NCBI GenBank assembly: GCA_944392815.1
Contig: CALXXY010000002.1
Span: forward strand, 152,257 to 216,256
DNA: 64,000 nt
DNA from: an uncultured Alphaproteobacteria bacterium
Lineage (GTDB): Bacteria > Pseudomonadota > Alphaproteobacteria > Rs-D84
Direction of reading: 5' to 3'
Below are positions 49,302-63,712 of this stretch, piece after piece; positions within the stretch are counted from its first letter, which is position 1; each line of letters opens with the position of its first letter. The notes under the pieces were generated by a model, which saw only the letters and a list, made by a program, of their open reading frames with translations, searched no databases and was not told where the DNA came from. Made by a program: the position numbers and the translations under genes.

Positions 49302-49378
<77 letters not shown>

Positions 49379-49523
49379 AGATTCCGCCCAGTTTTCTGGG
49401 CTTTTTTAGTACAAATTTTCCCAACACCAAATCGCCAAATTAAATCGGGGCAACCCAGGGGCAACCTTTTTTATGGAACCAGTACATTCAACCTGTTAAT
49501 ATTCATAAAAAAAGAGGGCTGAA

Positions 49524-50303
49524 ATGTTTAAACCACAACGACAGCACATTTATGAATTTATATCCGAAGATTGCGATTGGAGACAAGCATGCGAATGGCT
49601 GGAAACTGCTTGGGTGCCATTACCCCCCGGATACGAACATTTTGATAAAAAAAGAGATAACAGAATACCAATTGAAGAAACATACAAACATCCCTCTTAT
49701 TGGAGAAGAAGCCAAGTATTGGCCCAAGCCATAAAACAAGAGGTTTTAAGACCAATATACTATGACCGGGTGCTAATCAATATTTTAAATAACTTAACAT
49801 CCAATCCAGATTCAAGAGGGTCTTATGAGATTCAAGAGACAGTTAGACATTTAATGCATAGTCCCTTTATGGTTAGCTTTAAACATCTGGCGGAAGTATT
49901 CAAATGCGGCAGTTATAAAATAATTTTGGATAAAACCGAATTAATTTACAGTGGATATTATCTTTACTTGGAAAACAATGACCTTATGTTTTATGTAAAA
50001 GGTGAATCAAAAAAAATTTATAGCCTAAACAGATCAAACAGCACAATAGCAGATGTACTAAAATATCTGATTACCAAGGCACCAAATGAACCTGTATCTT
50101 TTGCAAGACTAGCCGAATATTCTGCACGAATTCGAAACAGCTGTTATGCAGACCAAGGCCTAAGAAAACTCCGTGAAGCAGTCATACAAAATATAAAAAA
50201 TGCCAAATATTCAAGATTAACCAAAGATGAAATGGATATGTTCAAGTCAATATTCATATATAAAGACGGAACATTGTCAATTAAAGCAAACCCTTATCAA
50301 TGA
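49524..50303 (+). CDS. Hypothetical protein (possible C-terminal winged helix)
   Basis: SD GAGGG; C-terminal VLKYLI...PNEPVSF..L pattern. Confidence 0.6.
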   Translation: MFKPQRQHIYEFISEDCDWRQACEWLETAWVPLPPGYEHFDKKRDNRIPIEETYKHPSYWRRSQVLAQAIKQEVLRPIYYDRVLINILNNLTSNPDSRGSYEIQETVRHLMHSPFMVSFKHLAEVFKCGSYKIILDKTELIYSGYYLYLENNDLMFYVKGESKKIYSLNRSNSTIADVLKYLITKAPNEPVSFARLAEYSARIRNSCYADQGLRKLREAVIQNIKNAKYSRLTKDEMDMFKSIFIYKDGTLSIKANPYQ

Positions 50304-50397
50304 CAAATGTCACCTTAATTAATGACACTGATATATTCATATTTTGATTTAGCCCGCATTTCCCTGCCCTTTGGGAAAAGGGCTTTTTCCTTATGTT

Positions 50398-50426
50398 TTG
50401 TCAGTAATTTTCTTCGTTGATAAAAT
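50398..50426 (+). promoter_or_regulatory. Sigma70 promoter of the island xis-int-rep operon
   Basis: TTGTCA-N17-TAAAAT. Confidence 0.6.
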
Positions 50427-50505
50427 TAAAAAATTCCCCATAATGTATCGTGAAGTTAACAAAAGCTTCAAAAAAATTCGAAACTTTCTATTAAAAGTTT
50501 TGAAT

Positions 50506-50577
50506 AAAAAAATTGGGCAAGAAACACCTGCCCAAACAAAGTAGATACAGACAAAATCTATATCAACCTTACTGACA
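50506..50577 (-). ncRNA. Predicted ~70-nt antisense countertranscript (ctRNA)
   Basis: Minus-strand promoter TTGCTT(50611-50606)-N17-TATCAT(50588-50583); terminator TTGGGCA/TGCCCAA plus T7 at 50535-50506. Confidence 0.65.
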
Positions 50578-50697
50578 TAAGAATGATAATGGATTTTAAA
50601 TTTAAAAGCAACTGATTTCTTTTAATTGTCTGTATCTCCTTTTTTTGCCGAGTCAGCCCTTCGGCAAGGCAATGTGACAAAAAAAAGGAGAAAAACC

Positions 50698-51354
50698 ATG
50701 TCACAAATTCTTAACAAAATAAAAAAACATTATATTGGGGCACAAGCAGAATACCTGATTCGCGAAAGAGAAAACCAGGGACACTATGGACCACAATGGG
50801 CGAAAAACAAAACATTGCACAACTATACAGACAGCCTGATATTAAGTTGTTTAACTGAACAAGAAAGACAAACCTTTCGGCAAAAGGCATGGCAGTGCAA
50901 GGAGTTTGACACCTATGTGGCTCTAGACCCTGTGAATCGAGCACAACGGTTATTAGAGGTAATAAACACCAACGAGTGCCCCGACAACATCTTGGAACCA
51001 CTGATTTGTGATTCTTGGTGTTATTCAGAACACGATTTAAACAGCAGACAAATTTTCGCGAAAATATTTGCAGAGTTTAAAAACTGCACACATTTTCTGA
51101 AAACGAAAAGACGGTTGCCACAGCTTTTCACTGTATATCGTGCTGGTTCAGAAGACGGAATATGTTGGACTATTGATAAATCAATAGCAATCCGATTGCA
51201 AAACAGACCGCCACTTTTCAGACTGCCAAAACCAGAATTTCTGCAACGAGAAGTATCGCGGGATGATGTAATTTGCTACATGTATAACACAGAAGAAAAG
51301 GATATTATCATTTTACCACAAAGCGATAAAAAAGGTGAATCCCATGCGGAATAA
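50698..51354 (+). CDS. Hypothetical protein with a degenerate ADP-ribosyltransferase-like C-terminal domain
   Basis: Strong SD AAGGAG before ATG 50698; TVYRAG...CWT...EEKDIII mirrors the ART R / S-x-T / ExE motifs. Confidence 0.55.
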   Translation: MSQILNKIKKHYIGAQAEYLIRERENQGHYGPQWAKNKTLHNYTDSLILSCLTEQERQTFRQKAWQCKEFDTYVALDPVNRAQRLLEVINTNECPDNILEPLICDSWCYSEHDLNSRQIFAKIFAEFKNCTHFLKTKRRLPQLFTVYRAGSEDGICWTIDKSIAIRLQNRPPLFRLPKPEFLQREVSRDDVICYMYNTEEKDIIILPQSDKKGESHAE

Positions 51355-51529
51355 AAATAAAAAGCCGCAGGCGATACAGTTGGAATTTGATTTTAATATC
51401 CAAAATCCAAATCAGAATCCTAAAAAAACGAAAAAAAAGAAGTGGGGGAATAAAAATCCCCCACACAAAGAAGCTGTACAATTAGAATTTAATTTTACCA
51501 AGGATTTAAGCCATGATCGAATCAAATAA
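51344..51529 (+). CDS. Small basic protein with two QLEFxF motifs
   Basis: Overlaps both neighbours; AIQLEFDF and AVQLEFNF flank a Lys-rich linker. Confidence 0.55.
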   Translation: MRNKNKKPQAIQLEFDFNIQNPNQNPKKTKKKKWGNKNPPHKEAVQLEFNFTKDLSHDRIK

Positions 51530-51713
51530 AACAATTGAGACATATATAACAACAAAAGAATTCGCCCAAATAATAAGATACAAGCCAAATACATTGGCTA
51601 AATGGCGAATCACACACCAAGAAAAAATACCATATATAAAAACTGGTGGGCGAATTTTATACCCATTAAGCAGTGTTATGGAATGGATTGAGAGCAAGGA
51701 AACCAACGGATAA
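51513..51713 (+). CDS. Excisionase-like helix-turn-helix protein (HTH_17/AlpA-like)
   Basis: YITTKEFAQII...TLAKWR...IPYIKTGGRILY....V.EWI. Confidence 0.85.
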   Translation: MIESNKTIETYITTKEFAQIIRYKPNTLAKWRITHQEKIPYIKTGGRILYPLSSVMEWIESKETNG

Positions 51714-51769
51714 AAAGCTTGATTTTCTTGGTGTTCGAGTAAACATGTCACAAATTAAAACAAAACCAA

Positions 51770-52903
51770 ATGTCTGCCAATAAGCATCATTTTACAAAAG
51801 AATATTTGAACAGTTTGCAGCCAGCACAACCCAAAAAACGATATGTTGTGTATGATTCAACACAAACATGTCTGTCTGTACGGGTATCTGACAACAATGT
51901 CAAATCGTTTGTGGTATTAAAAAAACACAATAATAAAGTGGTAAGAATAACATTGGGACATTACCCAGAAATGTCTATTCAAGAAGCACGAAAACAAACA
52001 ATAAACATTCTGTCAAAATTCCATGCCGGCGAAAACCCAAATCAAACAAAGCACGAGTATCGCATACAGAAAACTTTGGGTGATTTATTCGCCGAATTTA
52101 TGGAAAGATATTCTAAACTGGAAAAGAAATCTTGGCGACAAGACGAACAAGAAATACCAAAGTTTCTTGGACATTGGTTTAATCGTAAAATTGGTGATAT
52201 CTGCAAGCCAGAAATCCAAGCATTATTTGATAAAATTTCTGCTAATAATGGCAAATACCAAGCTAATCATACATTAGAACGGTTGCGGGCAATGTATAAC
52301 AAAGCCATTGAATGGGATTGGATTGCTCAAAATCCTACAAATAATATAAAGAAACATCGTACAACAAAACGAGATCGTTATATGACCAAGGAAGAATTTA
52401 TAAAATTCAAAAAAGCCCTATCCCAAGAGCCCCAAATATATCAGGCATTTTTCCTGCTGTTATTATACACAGGTGCAAGAAAAAGCAATGTATTGGCTAT
52501 GCGGTGGTGTGATATTGATTTAGAACAAAAAATTTGGCACATCCCAGATACCAAAAACGGCGAACCTGTCACCGTTCCTTTGATAGACCAAGCCATACAA
52601 ATATTAAATAAATTGCCACATATCAGCGAATGGGTATTTCCAAATCCTGAAAATCCATCACGACATTATGTCTATTTTACCAAAGCATGGAAACGAATCT
52701 TGAAACAATCGAACTTGGATAATTTAAGGGTTCACGACCTTCGCAGGACAATGGCTTCATGGCAGGCAATTCAAGGCACCAGTTTATTGACAATCGGAAA
52801 ATCATTGGGACACAAATCTATGCAATCCACTGAAATTTATGCCCGATTATCAACGAAAGCCGTCAGAGATGCTATGCAAAAAGCAATAGATAGCAATCAA
52901 TAA
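51770..52903 (+). CDS. Tyrosine integrase with arm-binding N-terminal domain
   Basis: RITLGHYPEMSIQEAR arm domain; TGARKSN (R), TKNG (K), HDLRR (HxxR), LGH, TEIYA (Y). Confidence 0.95.
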   Translation: MSANKHHFTKEYLNSLQPAQPKKRYVVYDSTQTCLSVRVSDNNVKSFVVLKKHNNKVVRITLGHYPEMSIQEARKQTINILSKFHAGENPNQTKHEYRIQKTLGDLFAEFMERYSKLEKKSWRQDEQEIPKFLGHWFNRKIGDICKPEIQALFDKISANNGKYQANHTLERLRAMYNKAIEWDWIAQNPTNNIKKHRTTKRDRYMTKEEFIKFKKALSQEPQIYQAFFLLLLYTGARKSNVLAMRWCDIDLEQKIWHIPDTKNGEPVTVPLIDQAIQILNKLPHISEWVFPNPENPSRHYVYFTKAWKRILKQSNLDNLRVHDLRRTMASWQAIQGTSLLTIGKSLGHKSMQSTEIYARLSTKAVRDAMQKAIDSNQ

Positions 52904-53014
52904 CACCTAATTTTAATCCAAACATAAACGGCACAAAAATAAATATATCTGTTGTGTATATCCAACAGGTACATGGGATTTTTATGCAAAAACACACATA
53001 AATATGGAATAAAA

Positions 53015-54145
53015 ATGATAGATACTATAAAAATAGCAGTTCCATTAAACCTGGTAACTTTCAGAAGTTATGATAATTTCAATATAGATGCTTTATATCT
53101 GGAAAGGGTGCTGTCGTGGCAAGCAGCCCCCATAAAAGCCCCATTCAAACCGTACCGCGAGCACACAACAGATGAAAAAAATACACACGGATATTTACCA
53201 GAAATATCTATATCAATGTATCCGAATCAAATAGGTTTTTGTGTTATACGATTTTCTGCCCCTATTATGTTATATGGAAACAATATCCGAGAAATAAAAG
53301 AAACTGACTTTACTTGTTTAATAATAACATTACAGGCAAAATTAAAACACCTGAATATCGATATATCTCTGGACGATATAAGCAATGCTTATGTTTGGGA
53401 AGTTCATACCTGTAAAAACATAGACCTTACAAACTATTCTTCTACTGACACCGTTTTATCCACACTGAACAAATTGCATTTTGCCAAAATAATACAAAAA
53501 GGAGAAACGAAGTTTTACAACACAGAAATACAAAAAGAATCCAAAGATGGTCGCAAGGTCAATATAGTTTGTTACAAACCAGGATCAAAAAGCACACCAT
53601 CATACGAAATATGTTTTTATGACAAACTAGAAGAATTAAAAAAAACAGCCGCAGGAACAGAGATATTAAATAATAACCCAGAATTATCAACAAAAACAGA
53701 TATTATTCGGTTTGAATACAGAATATATCGCACACAAATGTTGAGATCTAAACTGAGCCAATGCGAATTAGATCAAGATATATCATTTAAAAATATATTC
53801 AAAAATCAAATTATCAAAAAATTAAACAAAAATATATGGTCTCGCATAATAGACCCTGCCTTGTATATATTACCATATTTGAACCGAAAAACTGACTCTT
53901 TATGGGAAAAAATAGAAAAACTAAACCTGAAACCAATGAAAAGTCTTTATGCATACAGCATATATAAAACCTTTTCCAAAGAAGGGTTTGACAGCATACC
54001 CCAATATATAATCAACCCAAAAACCAAAGTGTTAAATAAAATCAAAACACAAATGGCACAAATATACAATATTAAACCAACAAAAATACAAACAACCATA
54101 TATCACATAAAAAATGAAATATTAAATAACAATCCGTTTATATAA
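53015..54145 (+). CDS. Putative replication initiator (phage gpII/X / CRI-like rolling-circle Rep)
   Basis: MIDTI, FSAP..LYGNN, FYDK..E, IRFEYR motifs typical of this family. Confidence 0.6.
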   Translation: MIDTIKIAVPLNLVTFRSYDNFNIDALYLERVLSWQAAPIKAPFKPYREHTTDEKNTHGYLPEISISMYPNQIGFCVIRFSAPIMLYGNNIREIKETDFTCLIITLQAKLKHLNIDISLDDISNAYVWEVHTCKNIDLTNYSSTDTVLSTLNKLHFAKIIQKGETKFYNTEIQKESKDGRKVNIVCYKPGSKSTPSYEICFYDKLEELKKTAAGTEILNNNPELSTKTDIIRFEYRIYRTQMLRSKLSQCELDQDISFKNIFKNQIIKKLNKNIWSRIIDPALYILPYLNRKTDSLWEKIEKLNLKPMKSLYAYSIYKTFSKEGFDSIPQYIINPKTKVLNKIKTQMAQIYNIKPTKIQTTIYHIKNEILNNNPFI

Positions 54146-54394
54146 CCATGCCCCAACATATATAATATATATAATATTAACTTTTATAGATATATTTTCT
54201 ATATAAATATATATATATGCATATATAAGATAAATAGTTTTAGAACTGTTTATAACTAAATGGACAAGATATGAGTATTAACATATATGCCAAAGTTTCA
54301 GAAATAGCAAATATCATAGAAGTTATATCTAAACTGGATAACAGTATTAAAATATCAGTTTATATTGAACACGAATAATCACAGGAATAATACA

Positions 54395-55063
54395 ATGGAA
54401 ATAGTGCTGAATAATGCATCCAATTTTAATTTAATGAGAGAATTACTGAATGATTTAGATTATATAACTTTGTCATATCAATATGATTCCAGCAAAGTAT
54501 CTGATTATCGCGGTAATAATACAATTATAACTGGTGATGATTCCAGCCAACATTATCAATTTGAATTATTAACCAATAAAATACAGGAACTGGACGAAGC
54601 TGTATTAAAAATGGGATATGAATGTTGGAATAATATGATTATAGACATCAGAACACCATCAAAATGGTCAGAGATAGGTGGATTATCTAATATAATTGGA
54701 ACCAGTCCAGAAGCAATAGAAGCATTGAAAACAATCAGACAAAAATACGAAGATAAACAAGTCATAGTTGCCATAATGAATTCAGGGCAATTATTTTTTG
54801 ATTATCCAATGGAATTAACAGAACTGATATATCAAATAACATCAGACCCAAACAGCCATCTGCTTATGGCCACTGGTGATGTATCAGGAATGGATTGTTT
54901 AACATCAGATGTAGTAAATTGTTTTGAGAACAGAATAGTATTCCAAACAGAAAACCCAATGTTTTCAAATATGTTAATTGGTAATGACGAAGCCACACAT
55001 TTACCATCCCCAGACCATTATTGCCAATATTCCACCAAAACAAATCAGATTATAATTGTGTAA
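54395..55063 (+). CDS. Degenerate FtsK/SpoIIIE-like domain protein
   Basis: HLLMAT...LTSDVVNCFENRIVF......S..LIG...A..L matches the FtsK C-terminal strand pattern; no Walker A. Confidence 0.5.
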   Translation: MEIVLNNASNFNLMRELLNDLDYITLSYQYDSSKVSDYRGNNTIITGDDSSQHYQFELLTNKIQELDEAVLKMGYECWNNMIIDIRTPSKWSEIGGLSNIIGTSPEAIEALKTIRQKYEDKQVIVAIMNSGQLFFDYPMELTELIYQITSDPNSHLLMATGDVSGMDCLTSDVVNCFENRIVFQTENPMFSNMLIGNDEATHLPSPDHYCQYSTKTNQIIIV

Positions 55064-55065
55064 GA

Positions 55066-55644
55066 TTATTCGTTTATATTGGTTTTAATTGTATCAGACA
55101 ACGAATTCTGTAAAGCCACTTTTTTTGTGGCATCTTTTAATTTTTTCGTTTTTGATTTGTTTTTCAATACCTGTTTAGCCGCTAATAATTGTTGTGTTTT
55201 TAATTGCCCAAACATTCCCCGCGGTTCATTTTCCCAGAATTTATCACTGGCTATATCTTCTGTTAAACAATCGCCAACTTGGAAATGACCGTGCGGAAAC
55301 TTTTTAAGACAGAATTCTATCGCCCTGTGATCTATATCAACACCATAAATATCTTCTTCTTCAATCCATTTATAAACATTCAATGCCGCAGCCAATAAAT
55401 TTCCAGTTCCACAACAAGGATCTATTAAATTAAAATGTTTTATAAATTCCGCAGATTCCGGACTTAAAGCAGCAATTTCCGCCTTAGTTTTATATTTTAT
55501 ATATTCTGGGTATAACCGTTTAGCCATTTCCATAGCCAATGGCTTTGGTGTATGAAAAGCACCCGCCGCCTGTCGTTCTTCTTTGGTTAAATTCAAATCA
55601 TCAGCGGAATTATTACAATTATAAAATCCCTTTTTTCTGGTCAT
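55066..55644 (-). CDS. Stand-alone SAM-binding half of an N6-adenine methyltransferase
   Basis: Motif X GAFHTPKPLAMEM, motif I LIDPCCGTGNLL, motif II YGVDID, motif III GDCL; no NPPY/DPPY. Start coupled to the upstream stop (TAG-TA-ATG). Confidence 0.8.
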   Translation of the reverse strand: MTRKKGFYNCNNSADDLNLTKEERQAAGAFHTPKPLAMEMAKRLYPEYIKYKTKAEIAALSPESAEFIKHFNLIDPCCGTGNLLAAALNVYKWIEEEDIYGVDIDHRAIEFCLKKFPHGHFQVGDCLTEDIASDKFWENEPRGMFGQLKTQQLLAAKQVLKNKSKTKKLKDATKKVALQNSLSDTIKTNINE

Positions 55645-55646
55645 TA

Positions 55647-58600
55647 CTATGCAAATTGTTCCATATAGTTTCTTGCCGGTTCCCATTCATCTTGACCAGA
55701 AGGTCTTGTAAAGCATTCTATTTTTGAATAATCTATTCCTAATCCATCAAACCCTAAATATTTTTCCATTTCTTGCTGATTGTATTTCTTATCTACAGGT
55801 ATCTTTGGTAAAACATCAAAAGGATTTGCCCGACCATCCTTAATCAAAATCATAGCCGCTATAACTGGCAATAATTTAGAATTATGTACAAAATTTCTTG
55901 CTTCTTGTTCTGTATTAAATTCAAACCCAAGAATTTTTGGAACTTGTTTGTTATGATTAGTCTGCGGATTACTATAATAGGCTTCTTGTGGTGTTAAACC
56001 TTCATCGGTTTTACCATTTATTATGGCCCCCATATAATTAACTAATAGATATGTCCACCATCGATCCATATGCCCATCCTTTCTTACCGCAACAAAATAC
56101 GGTTGGTTTTCATATTCTTTGGGGTGTCCTTGGTGTTCATAATCCATTATAAAGCGATCTTTAGTATTCGTCTTTGCTAAAAATACATTACAATCAAAAG
56201 GGCAACTATCATCTGATGGAGCTAAATGATATATTCCCATATCATGTTCCTGTAAAATGTTAAAAGCAGCACTAGCATCTTTTGCAGATAGATATGTAAT
56301 ATTCGCACAATATTGCCTTAAATCTCTATATTTCTCATGATCAGAACGATACTTATCCTGTAACCATTTTATCGGTTGCAAACTAACTCCTATTCCTCCA
56401 TTCTTTACAATTAAATCAACCATTTTCTGTAATATCGGTAAATGTAATTTCCCATATGGTGGGTTCATTATAAAGGATTGGAATTTCATAATTGTATCCT
56501 TGTTATTATCCAATGTTTCCAAAATATTATCGCTGTATATGACCATAATATTTGGTCGCAGTTTTTTCATAATCTCGGCATCACTAAAATTATCTGTAAT
56601 ATACATTTTTGTTGTATCATCAGTCAGATAATAACCACCACAAACAACTATATCGTAATTACCGTTTTTTCGCATTTTGGTGGCTAATTCTTGGGGCACG
56701 GGGCGACTGCCGTCTTTTTTATAAACTATTGGTAATTTCAAAACTTCTGCGGGAATAATATTGCCATTTTTATCAAAGCATTTATTTACCTTGGCATTAC
56801 AAAATGCGATTATCTGTTCACGACTGCCAGCATCACAGGCTTGTAAGATTTCTATAATATATCTATAATCTATACCTATTCCGATAAATTTACGAAACAA
56901 CTGTCTTTCTATATAGTTTTCTGCATGATTACGGCGACCAAATCTGGCAACAAAATCATCAAACCCATTTGGTACCCCAGATACCAAGAAATATGCCGGC
57001 AAATATCGCACAACCGCATTTACAAATGCACGAACTTTTTTCTCGTTCGTTGTACCTTCACCGTGGGCTTTTTCCCCTGTAATTTTAACAAATCGTCTAT
57101 TTTTCAAATATTTCCAACGAATAGCAGATGGATTATCACTAAATTCATCAATATAAATATCGTCTGCATTACCAGTTCCGCCTATATACGACCAAACTGT
57201 AACCATTTCATTATTTTTGCCAACTGGTAATTCTCGCTGTTGTATATCTGAACGATTTATCCCTCTTATTCTGTCGTTTTCTGTCATATTCCAGGGAACA
57301 TAACCATATTTTACTAAATCATCTTTTAATTGTTCTATGATGCCAACAAAATTCGCTTCCAGTGGCGATGGATTTAATTTATCTTCTGTTGGGTGCAAAC
57401 CCAATTCTTGATTTTCCAGTTCTTCATAATCGTCCCCACGGTCAGATAACTGTAATTGCAGTGTATGTGGTTTTTGTAAATCACTTAATTTTACATTTGA
57501 TAAATCTATTTTACTGGCAATTCGTGCAATATCAAAATCAACAGAATCTGTAATTTTTTCTATTTTCCAACTGGAAGTAAAAGTATTGAAAATTTCTTCA
57601 AAAGTATAATTCTGACGAGTCAGTGTATGATCACGAATTTGAATTGTTGATAATGCTTTTTCGTATTCTTGTTTATAATTATTATCACAAGCCCTGACAT
57701 ACAAATGATTTTTAATAAATGTATCTATCATTTGCAAGGTTCTACCCTTATTATAGTCAATTACATATGCTTCTGTTTTTACTCCGTTTGGGGTTTTACA
57801 ACGAAATGCTGCCTGAATATAACTTTCTGGCGAAGTCATATCAGAAATCATTATCACCGAATGACAATCTGGAAAAGAAACAGCCTGTAACCCTTTACCT
57901 ATTGTCACCAATAAATGTATATTTTGTTTATCTATTTTGCATTCACGATTCCATTCCCTGAACCGTAATTCATTATCAGATATGTATGTATCATCATCTT
58001 CGTCTGTTGTTGATGTTCTGGTGCATATTATAGATAAATGTTCATCCCGTGCCAATTCATTGACCGCATTTGCAAACAAATCGCAATACCGTTTTCTGGG
58101 CGGCACAACAACGATTGCATTCTGAACATTCAGCGATTGACCTTCTATATGTAATTTGCCTCCCCAAAATGTAGCCTTGACCCATTTTTTAATTTGTTCG
58201 TTTGCACCATCTGAATCAAAAAAATCAGAAAAACTACTATCCGTATTAAAGAATTCATTTTCAGGTGTTATGTATATCAATTCCGGATTTTTTAATCTGA
58301 ATTCTTTTTTATTTGTCGTCCGTTCAAAATCTTCTGCTTCATCCAATACACTATATACATACGAATTATTATCATTATAATCTTCATTGGATTTTAATCT
58401 GAACGGAGTTCCTGTTATATCTATTTTCACCTTTGGGTTTAGTATATCAATCGTTCTGGTTGCCCGCGGAGTTAATCTGGAAAAATGAGCTTCATCAAAC
58501 AATACCGCGGCACAATCATCCGAATTTACTGACGGAAATATTTTATGTATATCATCTATACTCTTATTATCAAACCATTGCTTGCTGGCAAAAAACAACC

Positions 58601-59336
58601 ATTTATCAGTTCCCAATTCCGCAGGTCCAGCAATCTGATCAGAATCATATATAAACAATTTGAATTTGCACGACTGATCAAATTTATAATAATCTTCACG
58701 AACCGCTTGTTTAGCATCCAGTTTAGCGGATATAAAAAATACATATTTTTTATCTGGGAATTTCTCGAACAAATAATTTATCATTTCAAACGATACCACT
58801 GTTTTGCCGAATCTGGGCATAGCAAATAAACCAAATCTATCTTGATTGCTATCAATTGTCTGTTTGAATTTATCAATGGCTTCTTGTTGTCTGGCTCTTA
58901 ATGTATATGTTCCGCCTAATGGTTCGCCAGTTTCTATATGCCTTAATACCCGTTTAATTTCATCTGGCGAAGTATTAAACCATTCCGTAGAAATCTGCCG
59001 ACAATTTATATGTCTTAAAACAGCAAATACATCTTTATCAAAATGATTTTCTTTATTTTTAGGATTAGGAAAATCAACCAACTGATAGCCAATATTTTCA
59101 ATATCACTGTACCGTATTCTGGCACCATCTTTGGCTGAACGACCTAATTCTTCTTTTATTCTGGCAATAACGGCATTTTCATTTGACATTCCAAAATATT
59201 TTTTCGCATACGGATCAACTTCACCCAAACAATATGTTGTCCAAGGTTCAATATCTTGAAATGGTTTATTTGTGGTATACCAATAAATAAGCATTTTCCT
59301 TGACATAGCAGCCAGATTCCCCTTTTTGAAATCCAT
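55647..59336 (-). CDS. Nuclease-SF2 helicase-methyltransferase fusion (type ISP/IIG-like restriction enzyme)
   Basis: N-terminal GIY-YIG/T5orf172-like region (IYWY...LGE...R...EWF); LRARQQEAI, MPRFGKT, FDEAH, TGTP, YIQAAFR; C-terminal IMNPPY plus TRD-like region. The real start may be ATG 59306. Confidence 0.8.
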   Translation of the reverse strand: MDFKKGNLAAMSRKMLIYWYTTNKPFQDIEPWTTYCLGEVDPYAKKYFGMSNENAVIARIKEELGRSAKDGARIRYSDIENIGYQLVDFPNPKNKENHFDKDVFAVLRHINCRQISTEWFNTSPDEIKRVLRHIETGEPLGGTYTLRARQQEAIDKFKQTIDSNQDRFGLFAMPRFGKTVVSFEMINYLFEKFPDKKYVFFISAKLDAKQAVREDYYKFDQSCKFKLFIYDSDQIAGPAELGTDKWLFFASKQWFDNKSIDDIHKIFPSVNSDDCAAVLFDEAHFSRLTPRATRTIDILNPKVKIDITGTPFRLKSNEDYNDNNSYVYSVLDEAEDFERTTNKKEFRLKNPELIYITPENEFFNTDSSFSDFFDSDGANEQIKKWVKATFWGGKLHIEGQSLNVQNAIVVVPPRKRYCDLFANAVNELARDEHLSIICTRTSTTDEDDDTYISDNELRFREWNRECKIDKQNIHLLVTIGKGLQAVSFPDCHSVIMISDMTSPESYIQAAFRCKTPNGVKTEAYVIDYNKGRTLQMIDTFIKNHLYVRACDNNYKQEYEKALSTIQIRDHTLTRQNYTFEEIFNTFTSSWKIEKITDSVDFDIARIASKIDLSNVKLSDLQKPHTLQLQLSDRGDDYEELENQELGLHPTEDKLNPSPLEANFVGIIEQLKDDLVKYGYVPWNMTENDRIRGINRSDIQQRELPVGKNNEMVTVWSYIGGTGNADDIYIDEFSDNPSAIRWKYLKNRRFVKITGEKAHGEGTTNEKKVRAFVNAVVRYLPAYFLVSGVPNGFDDFVARFGRRNHAENYIERQLFRKFIGIGIDYRYIIEILQACDAGSREQIIAFCNAKVNKCFDKNGNIIPAEVLKLPIVYKKDGSRPVPQELATKMRKNGNYDIVVCGGYYLTDDTTKMYITDNFSDAEIMKKLRPNIMVIYSDNILETLDNNKDTIMKFQSFIMNPPYGKLHLPILQKMVDLIVKNGGIGVSLQPIKWLQDKYRSDHEKYRDLRQYCANITYLSAKDASAAFNILQEHDMGIYHLAPSDDSCPFDCNVFLAKTNTKDRFIMDYEHQGHPKEYENQPYFVAVRKDGHMDRWWTYLLVNYMGAIINGKTDEGLTPQEAYYSNPQTNHNKQVPKILGFEFNTEQEARNFVHNSKLLPVIAAMILIKDGRANPFDVLPKIPVDKKYNQQEMEKYLGFDGLGIDYSKIECFTRPSGQDEWEPARNYMEQFA

Positions 59337-59370
59337 CTGGGAACGGCAATAAGAAAACCGCCAAAGGAAA

Positions 59371-59466
59371 GGCGGTCGGGAAAGTTAGCTGAGCAGTTTA
59401 AATCAATGTTGCTCCTGATTGCCTTCGAATTTAATTCTGTTGTATAACAATCAGCTCCCCGACCAT
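59371..59466 (-). ncRNA. C4/CI-like cloverleaf antisense RNA
   Basis: ATGGTCGGGG...CCCGACCGCC closing stem with two internal hairpins; exposed GATTTAAAC and CAGCTA are complementary to upstream 59530-59538 and 59543-59548. Confidence 0.7.
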
Positions 59467-59495
59467 CAGTCAGGGGTATTTAACGGTGCAAAAAC

Positions 59496-59580
59496 ACCAA
59501 AAAAACACCGGATCGATGCTTCTGCACCGGATTTAAACAAGCCAGCTACGGCCCCGAACCCAATTCCCATTGGATTCAAG
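59496..59580 (-). promoter_or_regulatory. c4-a1b1-like target leader
   Basis: Hairpin GAATCCAAT/ATTGGGTTC, then GGGCC-GTAGCT-GGCTT, GTTTAAATC, hairpin GGTGC-AGAA-GCATC, then a T7 run. Confidence 0.65.
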
Positions 59581-59661
59581 GTGAATTTTTACACAAGAAC
59601 TAAGAAAACACAAGAACCATTTTTTAGTTAAAAAAATGAAAAAAATTGCATTTTTTACAAT

Positions 59662-59715
59662 TAAATGTGAAAAAATCACATTTATCTTGACTTTTTAGTC
59701 GTTTTTTGATAATAT
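59662..59715 (+). promoter_or_regulatory. Palindromic operator plus sigma70 promoter of the rloA-rloB-KAP operon
   Basis: TAAATGTGA-AAAAA-TCACATTTA (59662-59684) abutting TTGACT-N17-TAATAT. Confidence 0.7.
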
Positions 59716-59737
59716 GGCATCAAACAAGAGGTAAAAT

Positions 59738-61009
59738 ATGCTTATAAACTTCTCTGTTTCTAATTTTTCATCTTTCAAGGACAAAATTACATTATCTATG
59801 GAAAAAACACCCATCCAGAAACACCCTGAACACATATTAGACAAAGGGTTATTGTCTGGGGTTGGTATCTATGGTGCAAATGCCAGCGGAAAAAGTAATT
59901 TATTACACAGCATCAGAATGCTGCCAGAATTCACTGTCGTAGGTGATAGAGATTTAGTTGCCGTATTAAATTCTAACCGCTTTATGTTAAACAACAAAGA
60001 ACCAATAGAATTTGAAGTCAATTTCATATCTAATAATATCAGATATTGTTATAAAATATCTGTCACAGAGACAGAAATCAGCAATGAAGAACTGTATTTT
60101 GCTGAAAAGAACAAAGAACATCTGGTATTCAAACGAAGTGGTATAGAAAAAGAATTTGGTAAAAACTTTACAGACAAGTTCTACAAGAATTGTACTTTTG
60201 CCAAAAACAGAACGGTTATATCAAAATTATTGATAGATGGTATCGCTGACAATAATGTTGAAAATAAACAACATATATTGAATACCGTACAATTCTTGCG
60301 GGGTATCGGATATTTTGATCCCAAAACTAATATCAACCCAGTGAATATTTACCACAATTTTAAATTTCCAGAATTCAAAAAGTTCTTGATGAATTTATTG
60401 GTACAGGCCGATTTTGGGATAACAGATATAGATTTCAAAGAAGTTGATTTTCCACATTCTAAATTGATGTCTATTAATCTATCACCTTTAACCCAAGGAA
60501 GTGTTTTATGCCACCAAGCTGATGAAGATTACTTCTTCTTCTCGTTTGAAAATGGTAAAATCATAAGTCGTCAATTGGTTATGTACCACGGAGATGCAAC
60601 ATTTCCAACAAATCGCGAATCTGCTGGAACAATGAAACTGTTCAAGCTTGGCTTTATGCTGTATTCATTCAAAAAAAGTGAAGGCAGCAAGTTATTATTA
60701 CTGGACGAATTTGACAGTTTATTCCACCCATTTCTATCCAAAGTATTGTTACAAAGTTTATTAAACAATCCTATGGGCGGTCAAATAATAGCCGTTCTAC
60801 ATAATACCCTGCTCTTATCACACGAGATTTGGAGAGTTGATGAAATATGGTTTACAGAAAAAGACCAAGAAGGTGTAAGCCGCCTGTACCCATTAACAGA
60901 TATTAATCCCAGATTTGATAAAAATCTGGAACGAGATTACATCAATGGTCGTTATGGTGCTGTTCCATTCCTGGGGGGTGAACAAGTATGGCAAGAAATT
61001 ATAAAATAA
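59738..61009 (+). CDS. AAA_21 / RloA-like ABC-type ATPase
   Basis: NFSSFKD, IYGANASGKSN, ESAGT, LLDEFD...HP, H-loop, DEIWFTEK, YINGRYGAVP. Confidence 0.9.
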   Translation: MLINFSVSNFSSFKDKITLSMEKTPIQKHPEHILDKGLLSGVGIYGANASGKSNLLHSIRMLPEFTVVGDRDLVAVLNSNRFMLNNKEPIEFEVNFISNNIRYCYKISVTETEISNEELYFAEKNKEHLVFKRSGIEKEFGKNFTDKFYKNCTFAKNRTVISKLLIDGIADNNVENKQHILNTVQFLRGIGYFDPKTNINPVNIYHNFKFPEFKKFLMNLLVQADFGITDIDFKEVDFPHSKLMSINLSPLTQGSVLCHQADEDYFFFSFENGKIISRQLVMYHGDATFPTNRESAGTMKLFKLGFMLYSFKKSEGSKLLLLDEFDSLFHPFLSKVLLQSLLNNPMGGQIIAVLHNTLLLSHEIWRVDEIWFTEKDQEGVSRLYPLTDINPRFDKNLERDYINGRYGAVPFLGGEQVWQEIIK

Positions 61010-61641
61010 ACAATACCAGAACTGGCCGCCCAATAAAAAAACAGGTGATTTATGTTGCCTGCGAAGGGGGCTCTAATGGAACAGAAGGGACATACATCAA
61101 ACAATTATGCGATCATTATAATTGCTCAATTGTTTGGGTATATCCCAAACCATTAAATGATCCTTTACAACTTGTACAAACTGCGATTAACTTCTCTAAA
61201 TTACAGGAAGCCAGACCAAATTCCCACTTATGGGTTATATTTGATAATGATATTCCTGACAGGGTTCATATGGCATTTGAAGCCGCGGAACAATATAACA
61301 ATTCATTAAAAAACAATTCGACCAAATATTTGAATATAAATATTGCATTTAATGCACCAAGTATTGAAACATTTGGTCTGTTATGTTGTGGGATTACTAA
61401 AATATCCACAAATGCCAAAACAAACCAACAACAGTTATGCCACCCAACAATGCTTAATTACAGCCATAAAAAATCACCTAAAACCAGCCCACATTTTGAT
61501 TTTAATACAATGGAATCTGGTTATGATTTTGCAATCACACAGGCAAAGCAATGGGAACATTCACTAAATGGCGATCCAGAATACACAGCACATATATTCG
61601 CCGGTATTTACAAATTAACAGAACAAATCAAAAACAGCTAA
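60988..61641 (+). CDS. RloB-like (TOPRIM-fold) protein
   Basis: VACEG...TE..Y, WVIFDND, NAPSIE; overlaps the ATPase stop. Confidence 0.82.
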   Translation: MARNYKINNTRTGRPIKKQVIYVACEGGSNGTEGTYIKQLCDHYNCSIVWVYPKPLNDPLQLVQTAINFSKLQEARPNSHLWVIFDNDIPDRVHMAFEAAEQYNNSLKNNSTKYLNINIAFNAPSIETFGLLCCGITKISTNAKTNQQQLCHPTMLNYSHKKSPKTSPHFDFNTMESGYDFAITQAKQWEHSLNGDPEYTAHIFAGIYKLTEQIKNS

Positions 61642-61657
61642 ACACACAGGATTATAT

Positions 61658-63712
61658 ATGTCTTTTTCCATTCTTAATCACACAAAACAGTCACAGGAGG
61701 AACAGACAGATATTATTACAGATATTTTAACTTCTGGACCAAAAAAAGAAGGAATATGTGTATCTCTAACCGGTAATTTGGGAATTGGAAAAACATACAG
61801 ATGGAACAATGTTATTGCACAAGAAATAAAAGCAAAAAAATTCAAAACCGTTTATATATCTTGCTTCGGGAAAAGTCGGTTATGCGATATTAAATTGGAA
61901 CTATTGTATCAAATTATAAAAATACAACATCCAGGTATCCAGTTTATTATTTGTTTTATCTTAGCGATTATATTGTGTATACTTACTTGTGGCATTATTT
62001 TTAATATGAATGGTTTGACTTTTTCCTTTGGTGCCAGCTTAATTATATTTGCTTTATATTGTTTATTAGTGGGTTCTTTATATGACACTCTAGTAAAATA
62101 TCTCGCAAATAAATTCATTGGGGTAGATAACAATAACATAGATTTTTCAAATTTTTATAAAAATAACATTGTCTTGTGTTTTGATGATATAGAAAGAATC
62201 AGATCTAAACAAACTAGCGACAATATTTTTGGTTTTATAGAAGAACTAAAAAATATTGGATACCCAATATTACTCATTTTAAACCCAAATCAAATTCCAA
62301 AAAATGAAGACAGACAAAATATCTGGAATATTTTCAAAGAAAAAGTAATAACAGATGATTGTATACAAACAGATAATCCAAGCATATTAAATTCTATTTT
62401 GAGTGAATATTCTCTCAATGAACAAGAAATAAAATATCTACATAATATTTATAATAACTTATCACTTTTTGATAATGATATTCAAAATTATTCTGAAGAA
62501 GAAAAATCATTAATCCAGGAGAAAATAAAAATTAATTACAGATTAATAAAAATAATTATAAAAAATATACTATTTGTACGAAAATATCTAAAAGAATACG
62601 ATTCTTTGCAACAAAACACCATAGAATCAATACTATCTTTTATCGGTTTTTATACTGTATATAGTTATTTTGAAGAATTACAAACATCTTTAAAGAAAAA
62701 TGATACACCTGATAATGAAAATTCAAACGAAAAAAATAAATATTTTATAGAAATCAACGAAATAAAAACATTATATGATGCATACTATACACAACCTATA
62801 AACTTTAAATTAGGAAATAAAAAACATATAGGTAATATATTTATTATTCAACAACCATTAAAATATGAACAATTATTACAAATAAAACAATTATTAGATA
62901 GCAAACAATTGAACGGTTCCATAACCATTAACGAGTATATCACCGATACAGAAAAATTTGCTATGTTTAGACCAATAGAATGCAGAACGAATGAAATCAA
63001 ATCAAAGATTCAACAAATATACGAATCTATGATAAAAGAAGAAAATCCATTTACTTCTATGTCAAGCATGGGAGGAGTATTAGGACTTTATTGCAGCTGT
63101 AAATATGAATTATTAAATGATAAATTTTCTGAAAAAGATTTTGTAAATATATTAAAAGTTATGGAAAAGTTTATAAAACAAAACCAATCTAACCTAAAAT
63201 TAAATGAATTTATTCATCCATACAATAATCTAATATTTATAACTGACACAACAAAAAGGGACAAAAAACAGCAAGAATATCCCAAAGCTGTTGAATATCT
63301 AAACAAAGAATTCAAACGACTTGGACTAAAAAATGCTATAGAATTAGCCAAAGCCGACAAAAACTTCTTTGATACTTACCAAGACATCTATACAGATAGT
63401 ACTGGTCTTATTTATCTTTTTGTTTTGGCAACTGATACAAAATACCAAAAAGATTTATCTAATATGAAAAAGAATGAATATTCAAAATTCATCAACATTA
63501 TGCGATATTTAGCATATGGAGTCACTATCACATATCACGATTCCACGATAAAACTTCTGGATAACTCAAATACTTTTTTAAACAAATTAAAAAGATTCCT
63601 AATAAAAGAAATTAATTCAATAAGCAAATTACCAGATGCTGGTATATCAGAAAATAATGCGAAATCTGAATTACTAAAACTAATAAAAAATTCTACACAA
63701 AATGAGATTTAA
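61658..63712 (+). CDS. KAP-family P-loop NTPase with two TM helices
   Basis: GNLGIGKT, YISCFG, hydrophobic insert, VLCFDDIER, FKEKVI. Confidence 0.82.
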   Translation: MSFSILNHTKQSQEEQTDIITDILTSGPKKEGICVSLTGNLGIGKTYRWNNVIAQEIKAKKFKTVYISCFGKSRLCDIKLELLYQIIKIQHPGIQFIICFILAIILCILTCGIIFNMNGLTFSFGASLIIFALYCLLVGSLYDTLVKYLANKFIGVDNNNIDFSNFYKNNIVLCFDDIERIRSKQTSDNIFGFIEELKNIGYPILLILNPNQIPKNEDRQNIWNIFKEKVITDDCIQTDNPSILNSILSEYSLNEQEIKYLHNIYNNLSLFDNDIQNYSEEEKSLIQEKIKINYRLIKIIIKNILFVRKYLKEYDSLQQNTIESILSFIGFYTVYSYFEELQTSLKKNDTPDNENSNEKNKYFIEINEIKTLYDAYYTQPINFKLGNKKHIGNIFIIQQPLKYEQLLQIKQLLDSKQLNGSITINEYITDTEKFAMFRPIECRTNEIKSKIQQIYESMIKEENPFTSMSSMGGVLGLYCSCKYELLNDKFSEKDFVNILKVMEKFIKQNQSNLKLNEFIHPYNNLIFITDTTKRDKKQQEYPKAVEYLNKEFKRLGLKNAIELAKADKNFFDTYQDIYTDSTGLIYLFVLATDTKYQKDLSNMKKNEYSKFINIMRYLAYGVTITYHDSTIKLLDNSNTFLNKLKRFLIKEINSISKLPDAGISENNAKSELLKLIKNSTQNEI

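Follow-up and report, generated by a model that had tools for sequence, protein, structure and literature searches.

A probable self-addressed, C4-type leader RNA in a reduced-genome gut alphaproteobacterium and its family in the Alphaproteobacteria

Background

Why does the 400-nt gap in front of a ResIII-type helicase gene carry an RNA that is complementary to itself at two places, and what does that RNA control? The locus lies in a 64-kb stretch of DNA (the window) from an uncultured alphaproteobacterium with a 927-kb genome, where a leader on the minus strand (59577-59351) occupies the gap between the plus-strand AbiLi/AbiLii genes (59738-61641) and the divergent ResIII gene (59336-55647, minus). 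An initial annotation of the window had likened this leader to the C4 RNA of phage P1 and the CI RNA of phage P4.

RNase P releases the P4 CI RNA, with its elements seqA, seqB and seqC, from its operon's leader, and pairing of this RNA with an upstream sequence in the same transcript results in premature termination. A further target, seqC, lies downstream, and the genes under control are those of replication. Likened by its general description, P4 CI would be the system closest in logic to a self-addressed terminating leader. Another RNA that enters the comparisons below, sRNA-Xcc1, is a Xanthomonas RNA reported to be borne on integrons, transposons and plasmids.

We consider it reasonably likely that the stretch at 59577-59351 is a self-addressed C4-type leader that terminates transcription by default, yields an RNA matured at UAU↓GGU and allows each locus to regulate itself without cross-talk. 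It is probably an alphaproteobacterial variant of the C4-type RNAs, acting as a self-addressed attenuator or as a processed small RNA (sRNA). Its family occurs widely among Alphaproteobacteria and has undergone strong expansion in this chicken-gut lineage of reduced genome size, and the leader module is generic, preceding surface and contingency genes as well as the defence-like gene pair of the window.

C4-type RNAs and their expansion within single genomes are already known, the latter from Acinetobacter baumannii (PMC5320573, accessible part). New here are a branch in Alphaproteobacteria left unannotated by Rfam at the loci tested, its expansion to 17-51 copies per megabase, the loss of the downstream target with the self-target retained and coupled to a terminator and to a masking strand (S2), and its use in front of surface-protein genes.

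Results

Complementarity between the leader and the loops of its own RNA

From 5' to 3', the leader comprises a 5' hairpin, a small hairpin that presents address box 1, a single-stranded address box 2, a variable middle region, the strand S2, a tRNA-like RNA of three helices (helix P1 formed by strands S3 and S4, with hairpins P2 and P3 inside) and an intrinsic terminator (Table 1). The two boxes together, TAGCTG-N4-GTTTAAATC (59548-59530), are the exact complement of GATTTAAAC-N4-CAGCTA (59404-59386) in the P3 loop and the adjoining junction. The elements that the initial annotation had placed on the minus strand were all correctly located, and the complementarity of the boxes is exact to the base. 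A search of the window for both boxes together, allowing no mismatch, gives exactly two sites: that in the leader and the loop/junction complement. Chance would give 0.15 sites even at up to two mismatches. The same two sites are the only ones in the whole genome, with no second exact two-box site for this copy anywhere in it.

Other copies of the leader, described below, keep the complementarity with different letters in every case inspected by eye (ACTGTATT/AATACAGT, CATAACAGT/ACTGTTATG, AAACTGG/CCAGTTT). The orthologous leader of another species (locus L203), which precedes an orthologous ResIII gene (63% identity), has box 2 unchanged and box 1 swapped on both sides, from TAGCTG/CAGCTA to TTCATAA/TTATGAA. 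Loop and target change together in homologs. At the level of sequence, this retention of complementarity by paralogues and orthologues with different letters is the strongest evidence against chance.

The pairing was quantified in 45 copies (17 from the window's own genome and 28 from relatives; two more were dropped for short flanks) by comparing the 30-nt address segment before S4 with 150 nt upstream or downstream. Against its own upstream sequence the segment reached a mean of -20.5 kcal/mol, compared with -14.0 kcal/mol (standard deviation 3.1) against the upstream sequences of other copies, and the cognate leader was ranked first among the 45 for 17 copies and third or better for 32 (median rank 2). 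No signal was obtained with the downstream 150 nt (-14.4 vs -13.1 kcal/mol; rank 1 in 3/45; median rank 16), nor did the window copy show a second target in the ResIII mRNA (-9.8 kcal/mol, rank 16/17). Whole-sequence RNAduplex comparison of the cloverleaf interior with 150 nt was too noisy and was replaced by the 30-nt segment.

A strict script recovered two exact blocks 3-7 nt apart in 12 of the 17 own-genome copies, unique in the genome besides the trivial complement. In four of the other five the pairing relies on shorter blocks or on G-U pairs, and one of the two address pairings has been lost in copy C2:2815. Wherever address box 2 (the a-boxes) was read out in own-genome copies, all differed from each other. 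In an energy-based genome scan for trans targets, the cognate site was outscored by many chance sites, and such a scan can neither find nor exclude imperfect targets.

The three-helix RNA and its alternative folds

Across 47 copies, 95.3% of the alignment cells in the three helices and the terminator are paired, against 29-47% in slid controls, and 20 of the 25 model pairs have double-sided (compensatory) changes; fitting the alignment to the model tends to raise these figures. With such changes in most model pairs, the layout of target followed by cloverleaf that had been proposed for this locus is real at the RNA level. One P3 pair alternates between G-U and A-U (26 and 17 sequences), an alternation that fits an RNA on the minus strand. 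A compensatory change is also seen in the 5' hairpin at locus L003 (CCAAU/AUUGG to CCAAA/UUUGG). The 261-nt leader folds at -94.5 kcal/mol, compared with -69.05 +/- 4.4 kcal/mol for shuffled sequences (z = -5.78), and 0 of 200 shuffles folded as well. MAFFT alignment of full leaders misaligned the 5' half and left S2 out of register; the column-wise covariation counts cover the three helices and the terminator.

S3 is shown, in predicted ensembles and by its complementarities, to have two conserved and mutually exclusive partners, S2 and S4. S2 and S3 are complementary at 7/7 positions in 25 of 45 copies, where by our own estimate about one would be expected by chance, and S2 tracks the changes in S3 (CCYGAC/GGUCGGG, UCCAAC/GGUUGGA, CCUGACC/GGUCAGG). 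Fold probabilities were taken from thermodynamic ensemble predictions. For the full leader, P1 (S3:S4) is predicted at about zero in 45/45 copies and S2:S3 at more than 0.5 in 32/45, and on average about 16 bp of box-to-address pairing are predicted together with a formed terminator. For an RNA starting at S3, P1 is predicted at more than 0.5 in 41/44. When the RNA runs from S2 onward without the boxes, P1 exceeds 0.5 in 8/44 and S2:S3 in 28/44. Predicted terminator pairing averages 4.8 bp for the full leader, 5.6 bp for an RNA that starts at S2 and 4.3 bp with P1 formed.

A family widespread in Alphaproteobacteria

Further copies in the 927-kb genome were first seen by BLAST and with the Rfam sRNA-Xcc1 model. 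A covariance model (R1) was then built from six seed copies, the window copy among them, and gave 17 copies in the 0.93-Mb genome, of which the 11 non-seed copies are independent of the model. R1 has matches in 55 of 61 genomes (the own genome included), among them 36/36 of the genus's other sampled genomes, each of about 1 Mb and carrying 1-51 copies. The window copy scores 103.1 bits with R1, partly by construction since it is a seed, and 93.9 bits with a second model, R2; it is a full-length three-helix match with S2, RCC and terminator. R2 has matches in 24 of 151 class-level genomes (one per family; the 24 include the unpublished G100), mostly with 1-9 copies. Copies are 60-75% identical.

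An exact pattern of the closing strands occurs in at least 120 stretches of the species collection. Among the 80 pattern matches listed, nearly all are from Alphaproteobacteria, including named records of Rhizobium leguminosarum, Brucella pseudogrignonensis, Paracoccus, Sphingomonas, Mesorhizobium and Hyphomicrobium, and R2 confirms 77 of these 80. In the named alphaproteobacterial set, an A follows RCC in 76/78 and TA precedes TGG in 70/78, neither of which was imposed by the search pattern. RCC follows the closing stem in 31/47 genus copies. This DNA is present in chicken-gut metagenomes; blastn searches with the leader in distant mode against plasmids and against phages gave no match. A C4-type leader family of Alphaproteobacteria was not described in the accessible passages of the literature searched.

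Relation to phage P1 c4 and to other known RNAs

The C4 antisense RNA with its a1b1 leader is a system of phages P1 and P7. By annotation and sequence, P1 has, in order, a promoter, a 5' hairpin, a further hairpin with a1 in its loop, b1 as a single strand, a terminator-like hairpin ending in a U-run, and c4, which begins UAU↓GGUGGGG and ends after its closing strand in the tail ACC (...GCCACC). The window leader repeats this order part by part. Both have the UAU↓GGU start context and the RCC/ACC tail, and they share a long closing stem, a structural hairpin, and the use of the second-hairpin loop and the junction as antisense elements; in both C4 and the window family the address elements define specificity. 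The upstream half resembles c4-a1b1 in having a 5' hairpin and two boxes, one in a loop and one single-stranded, that are complementary to downstream RNA. In contrast to P1 c4, the window leader has no a2/b2 target over the ribosome-binding site of the downstream mRNA, its RNA is directly followed by an intrinsic terminator, its cargo is not an antirepressor, P2 of its family has a conserved internal loop that is absent from C4, and there are 17 chromosomal copies in the own genome and up to 51 in relatives.

One family member in a 2.0-Mb genome, an R2 match (locus L215), precedes an AntA/AntB antirepressor gene and has the canonical module complete, with boxes upstream at 1428 and 1444 and downstream at 1614 and 1626 of the locus, the last of them over the Shine-Dalgarno sequence of the AntA gene. 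By this comparison the family is, in origin or in form, a C4-type mobile-element RNA. The likeness to phage P1 C4 drawn in the initial annotation thus holds for the part-for-part architecture and gains from the AntA locus; it does not extend to a score with the Rfam C4 models or to a downstream target.

At gathering score (45 bits for C4, 46.7 for c4-a1b1, 53 for sRNA-Xcc1 and 50 for isrK; C4 and c4-a1b1 belong to clan CL00128), Rfam finds in the window five tRNAs only, none of them at the leader. The only significant Rfam score there is that of sRNA-Xcc1 (RF02221; 29.7 bits, E = 0.004, 59464-59366), and the best in the genome is 36.5 bits on two paralogues; both lie below the gathering score. 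Both RNAs have a closing stem that starts with GG and is followed by ACC, and inside it the motif AUACAA...GAA in the first hairpin, then another hairpin and a junction. In Xylella, sRNA-Xcc1 is multicopy and island-borne and adjoins C4 and isrK matches (PMC12189769, accessible part); an upstream self-target like that of the window is not described for it in the accessible literature. None of 16 named alphaproteobacterial loci is annotated by Rfam at gathering score, and none of 11 class-level loci at E <= 0.01, sRNA-Xcc1 included in both cases. Since the gathering thresholds annotated 0/16 loci, many such RNAs are probably unannotated.

The 'Group 1' C4-like sRNAs of A. baumannii are reported to form a large set within one genome, to be cut from longer transcripts at GGW and to have a variable a' region (PMC5320573, accessible part). 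They differ in being gammaproteobacterial and recognized by Rfam C4, and the accessible part of that source neither describes them as terminator-ended leaders of surface-protein genes nor reports self-targets.

Two observations were made on phage P1 itself. In the c4 precursor (L199 48330-48352), an upstream ACGCCC seen by eye is complementary to GGGCGU of the closing stem and is a possible counterpart of S2. The Rfam isrK model matches the P1 a1b1 region (L199 48230-48311) at 35.1 bits, below its gathering score, so IsrK-type RNAs may resemble C4 leaders rather than C4 itself. As for other tRNA-like RNAs, the Rfam alpha_tmRNA model finds one two-piece transfer-messenger RNA (tmRNA) in the genome (158.8 bits), which marks the genome as alphaproteobacterial, and ARAGORN found no tmRNA in contigs C1-C11.

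Genes downstream of the leaders

The genes that follow the leaders (their cargo) are mostly for surface proteins. In the own genome, the 17 copies precede an autotransporter with Chlam_PMP repeats, the ResIII protein, an 80-aa membrane protein, an XRE regulator, LicD, two outer membrane protein (OMP)/Opacity-type barrels, PAP2, four or five small Cys-rich secreted proteins and several genes of unknown function, and one copy has no gene. In relatives, lipoproteins, OMPs and a glycosyltransferase-like N-terminus were recognized by eye. In most copies the cargo start codon lies 13-34 nt after the terminator; in the window the ATG is 20 nt 3' of the terminator stem, which leaves no room for a promoter between them.

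Layout of the leader

The coordinates of the leader, of its cargo genes and of the surrounding region are collected in Table 1. The 5' strand of the terminator shares GACC (59377-59374) with the last four nucleotides of P1, and a terminator scan found two terminator-like sites where 0.4 were expected. One candidate element, S1 (UCGGGG after the 5' hairpin), was considered as a duplicate of S3 and dropped; it is absent from type B copies, and its G-run is the stem of the box-1 hairpin.

Table 1. Leader elements, cargo genes and neighbouring features, given as positions in the window unless a contig is named
Feature	Position	Strand	Remarks
Putative extended -10 TGTGTAAAAAT	59585-59595	minus	in an A/T-rich stretch, 7 nt 5' of first hairpin; transcription start inferred
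5' hairpin GAAUCCAAU-GGGA-AUUGGGUUC	59577-59556	minus	kept in type A copies
Small hairpin GGGGCC-[GUAGCU]-GGCUU	59555-59539	minus	loop presents address box 1
Address box 1 TAGCTG	59548-59543	minus	in hairpin loop; b1 of the initial annotation
Address box 2 GTTTAAATC	59538-59530	minus	single-stranded; a1 of the initial annotation
Variable middle hairpin(s)	59529-59484	minus	include terminator-like stem and T7 (59523-59501); CGGUGC-GAAA-GCAUCG in many type A copies
S2 CCCCTGAC (CCCCUGAC)	59476-59469	minus	upstream copy of 3' closing strand; pairs with S3 to form alternative hairpin
S3 GGTCGGGG	59464-59457	minus	5' closing strand; 4 nt after S2
tRNA-like three-helix RNA	59464-59374	minus	P1 is GGUCGGG(G)/CCCGACC
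P2 hairpin	59454-59415	minus	internal loop AUACAACAG...CGAAGG
P3 hairpin	59414-59391	minus	loop holds box 2' GATTTAAAC (GAUUUAAAC), 59404-59396
Junction box 1' CAGCTA (CAGCUA)	59391-59386	minus	complement of box 1
S4 CCCGACC	59380-59374	minus	3' closing strand; partner of S3
GCC straight after closing stem	59373-59371	minus	RCC of RCCA-like tail
Intrinsic terminator GACCGCC-UUUCCUUU-GGCGGUU and U-run	59377-59351	minus	stem 59377-59356; 7 pairs, 5 of them G-C
Cargo gene 1, 1229-aa ResIII/SNF2-type helicase protein	55647-59336	minus	ResIII 1.5e-14
Cargo gene 2, 206-aa small S-adenosylmethionine/N6-methyltransferase-like protein	55066-55686	minus	best PADLOC match mad2, 3.5e-9
Small Cys-rich secreted proteins, own genome (G000)	C4:3-263, C3:90246-90689, C1:75691-76134, C4:89603-90034, C2:2943-3137		
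tRNA of island	49302-49375		
Tyrosine integrase of island	51770-52903		with Arm-DNA-binding domain
Replication protein of island	52952-54145		weak, Phage_CRI-like
AbiLi/AbiLii of island	59738-61641	plus	
684-aa protein of island	61658-63712		no family match

Discussion

The leader has two predicted, mutually exclusive folds. In the closed fold, S2 pairs with S3, the boxes pair with the loop and junction, and the full terminator forms; in the open fold, the cloverleaf (S3:S4) forms, the terminator is weakened and the address is exposed. In the mechanism that we propose, the nascent leader would take the closed fold by default and terminate, leaving the ResIII/methyltransferase pair to be expressed only from read-through transcripts. 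The released leader would be cut at UAU↓GGU to give an RNA of about 95-110 nt, with RNase P the most likely enzyme, as in P1 c4. RNase P RNA is encoded in the genome, and the processing of C4 by RNase P at GGW is reported (PMC5320573, accessible part). Since its own leader is the one perfect partner of the processed RNA in the genome, the RNA may then act back on its own locus only, affecting how transcripts fold and terminate there, either in cis or in trans. Feedback of either sign would fit the sequence.

Several results weigh against a self-addressed, processed leader of this kind. When the boxes are removed in silico, P1 does not gain the upper hand from that alone; S2:S3 still prevails, so box pairing alone does not explain the choice between S2:S3 and P1. 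A cloverleaf competent for RNase P is almost never predicted in the precursor, and processing would therefore need a minority fold or a prior cut. The full RCCA is present in only 20/47 genus copies, and the window copy, with GCCU, is incomplete. Some copies have b-boxes in common, so the addresses are not fully private. Neither C4 (RF01695) nor c4-a1b1 (RF03163) matches at E <= 10 in 59200-59800, contrary to what the initial annotation would lead one to expect, and C4 has no match at that threshold in the whole genome. As both models score phage P1 above threshold (68.8 and 51 bits, our positive control), they work, and the window is beyond their reach. R2 in turn does not recognize P1 c4 (3.3 bits). 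With each side's models missing the other's RNA, the case for common descent with P1 c4 is one of architecture and short motifs.

Part of the promoter and RNA evidence counts against the same reading as well. A consensus scan found no full sigma-70 promoter on the minus strand of the window. An exact TATAAT is present in 19/45 other copies, 68-162 nt 5' of S2 and just before the 5' hairpin. The RNA evidence comes from four runs, each in the form of assembled contigs. A single contig of an RNA library spans 59356-59559 before passing into unlike sequence; it may be of DNA origin and shows no RNA ends. The rest of the window leader has no cover in these four runs. In two runs, one from each of two studies (X17 and X20), contigs match the leader to 59356 and diverge there into the same unlike sequence, which indicates that in other strains the leader is joined to a different downstream gene at the terminator T-run.

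The alternative that survives best, although we think it unlikely, is a purely cis-acting structured leader, riboswitch-like or a protein-binding attenuator, in which the box pairings are architectural pseudoknots, no trans-acting RNA is processed and the variety of the boxes is neutral compensatory drift. Much of what was found above would suit it: the cis pairing is present in full leaders both in the predicted minimum free energy fold and in the ensemble, 12/17 copies have no other genomic target, there is no downstream target, and the conserved P2 internal-loop motifs AUAMAACAG...CGAARG could bind a ligand or protein. However, the boxes are far more variable than P1 and P2 within one genome, which suggests selection for distinct addresses. 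The tRNA-like end (UAU↓GGU...RCCA, 76/78 in the named set) would have no role in a pure cis fold, the L215 member has a canonical trans-type target over the Shine-Dalgarno sequence, and the C4-like RNAs of A. baumannii are reported to be processed (PMC5320573, accessible part).

An independent sRNA gene with its own terminator, acting in trans by imperfect pairing while the downstream gene is merely adjacent or receives rare read-through, seems to us improbable. Its precedent is the Brt1-9 family of Bartonella, multicopy and highly expressed RNAs of 194-203 nt encoded in plastic genome regions, in which a terminator 10-18 nt before XRE genes permits little read-through; they were proposed to be riboswitches or trans-acting sRNAs, and no self-address is described for them in the accessible part of the source (PMC5387305). 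Like Brt, the window family is alphaproteobacterial and multicopy, has its terminator directly after the RNA and includes one own-genome copy in front of an XRE gene, a likeness drawn by description only; the genome energy scans, with many sites as good as the cognate one, are also in keeping with imperfect trans pairing. Against it stand the strong cognate-leader signal and the position of most cargo start codons, 13-34 nt after the terminator, which leaves no room for a promoter of the cargo's own. In the bacterial family of the Rhizobium record, moreover, 18/151 sampled genomes have matches, nearly all as a single copy and four at most, and no Brt-like multicopy pattern appeared.

The initial annotation had further proposed that a phage-immunity module might have been put to a new use here, setting the time or the extent to which a restriction-type enzyme is made once the genes have entered a new host. 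The locus has features that invite this: a tRNA, an integrase and a Rep-like gene mark an integrative island beside the AbiL genes, the arrangement of leader and ResIII gene is common to two species, and the RNA-library contigs that join the same leader to other DNA at the T-run suggest a modular leader. A survey of downstream genes speaks otherwise, since 16 of the 17 own-genome copies precede other kinds of gene. ResIII orthologues (1199-1224 aa) occur in 4 of 60 other genomes of the genus, and only one of the four has the leader, the other three being without it within 1.5 kb. The cargo mRNA holds no target. The large ResIII protein has no PADLOC family, and no nuclease domain was found in it; its match to the EcoAI R-subunit is weak (23 bits against a cut-off of 550). 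Of the nuclease-helicase-methyltransferase pair described initially, the helicase and a methyltransferase-like protein are thus borne out and the nuclease is not. A 'restriction-type' nature of the cargo is plausible from its neighbourhood, and the defence-specific reading as a whole is only partly supported; as an account of what the leader is for, we regard it as very improbable.

That the leader works at the level of DNA, as a site for recombination or attachment or as a tRNA-mimicking mobile promoter cassette, with its inverted repeats incidental, is scarcely credible: the junction at the T-run in other strains, the tRNA and integrative and conjugative element (ICE) genes near members in named genomes and the many matches near contig ends would suit it, but the compensatory changes include G-U pairs, workable on one strand only, the promoter and terminator keep a consistent orientation relative to the cargo, and copies of 60-75% identity are not recent transposition copies.

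The self-addressed C4-type leader, which we continue to favour, can be extended to a larger picture that we offer as speculation and hold to be rather doubtful. In it, 17-51 self-addressed RNA gates per megabase would form a genome-wide system with a private address for each surface or contingency gene (the autotransporter, the Opa-like porin, LicD, the small secreted proteins and the helicase-methyltransferase pair), through which a processed tRNA-like RNA would set termination at its own locus alone. Such a system would provide heritable or stochastic ON/OFF control gene by gene, an RNA-based counterpart of phase variation descended from the immunity RNAs of mobile elements.

The findings extend C4-type immunity RNAs to the Alphaproteobacteria, including named records of Rhizobium, Brucella, Paracoccus and Sphingomonas. 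With a copy every 20-55 kb, placed before surface-protein genes, the leader may be the commonest regulatory RNA of this 0.9-Mb gut bacterium, in which the defence gene is one cargo among many. A module without the classical downstream target makes the long-unexplained a1b1 copy of phage P1 directly testable, through the effect of pairing with the own leader. The many distinct, co-varying address pairs on a fixed scaffold could also serve as orthogonal RNA-RNA parts.

Genomic neighbourhood and further observations

The leader sits in what looks like an integrative defence island (49302-63712; Table 1). Cargo genes 1 and 2 overlap by 40 nt (55647-55686). At L201 and L203, the orthologous loci with open reading frames (ORFs) listed, a small ORF of 175-178 aa follows the ResIII gene, and the 175-aa one gives the same methyltransferase matches. 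The orthologues being of similar length and accompanied by a small partner ORF, the ResIII/methyltransferase pair is intact and not truncated.

The small Cys-rich secreted proteins (a signal peptide, then VTKCVA...) each follow a type B leader and have no Pfam match. At the C2:2815 copy, the cargo protein has a different reading frame after the signal peptide.

In relatives, many copies of the leader lie 40-300 nt from contig ends, for example on contigs C3, C4, C6, C13 and C32 of G019. Assemblies seem to break just beside the leaders, perhaps in paralogous cargo genes.

Loci L079, L103 and L157 (also L109 and L148), from Sphingomonas, Cereibacter and Paracoccus records, carry the same or nearly the same 121-nt RNA, each scoring 50.0 bits. 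The RNA precedes a DUF2285/RovC-type regulator, with replication initiator A and SLT lytic transglycosylase genes nearby, a setting that looks like an ICE-like conjugative element shared across genera.

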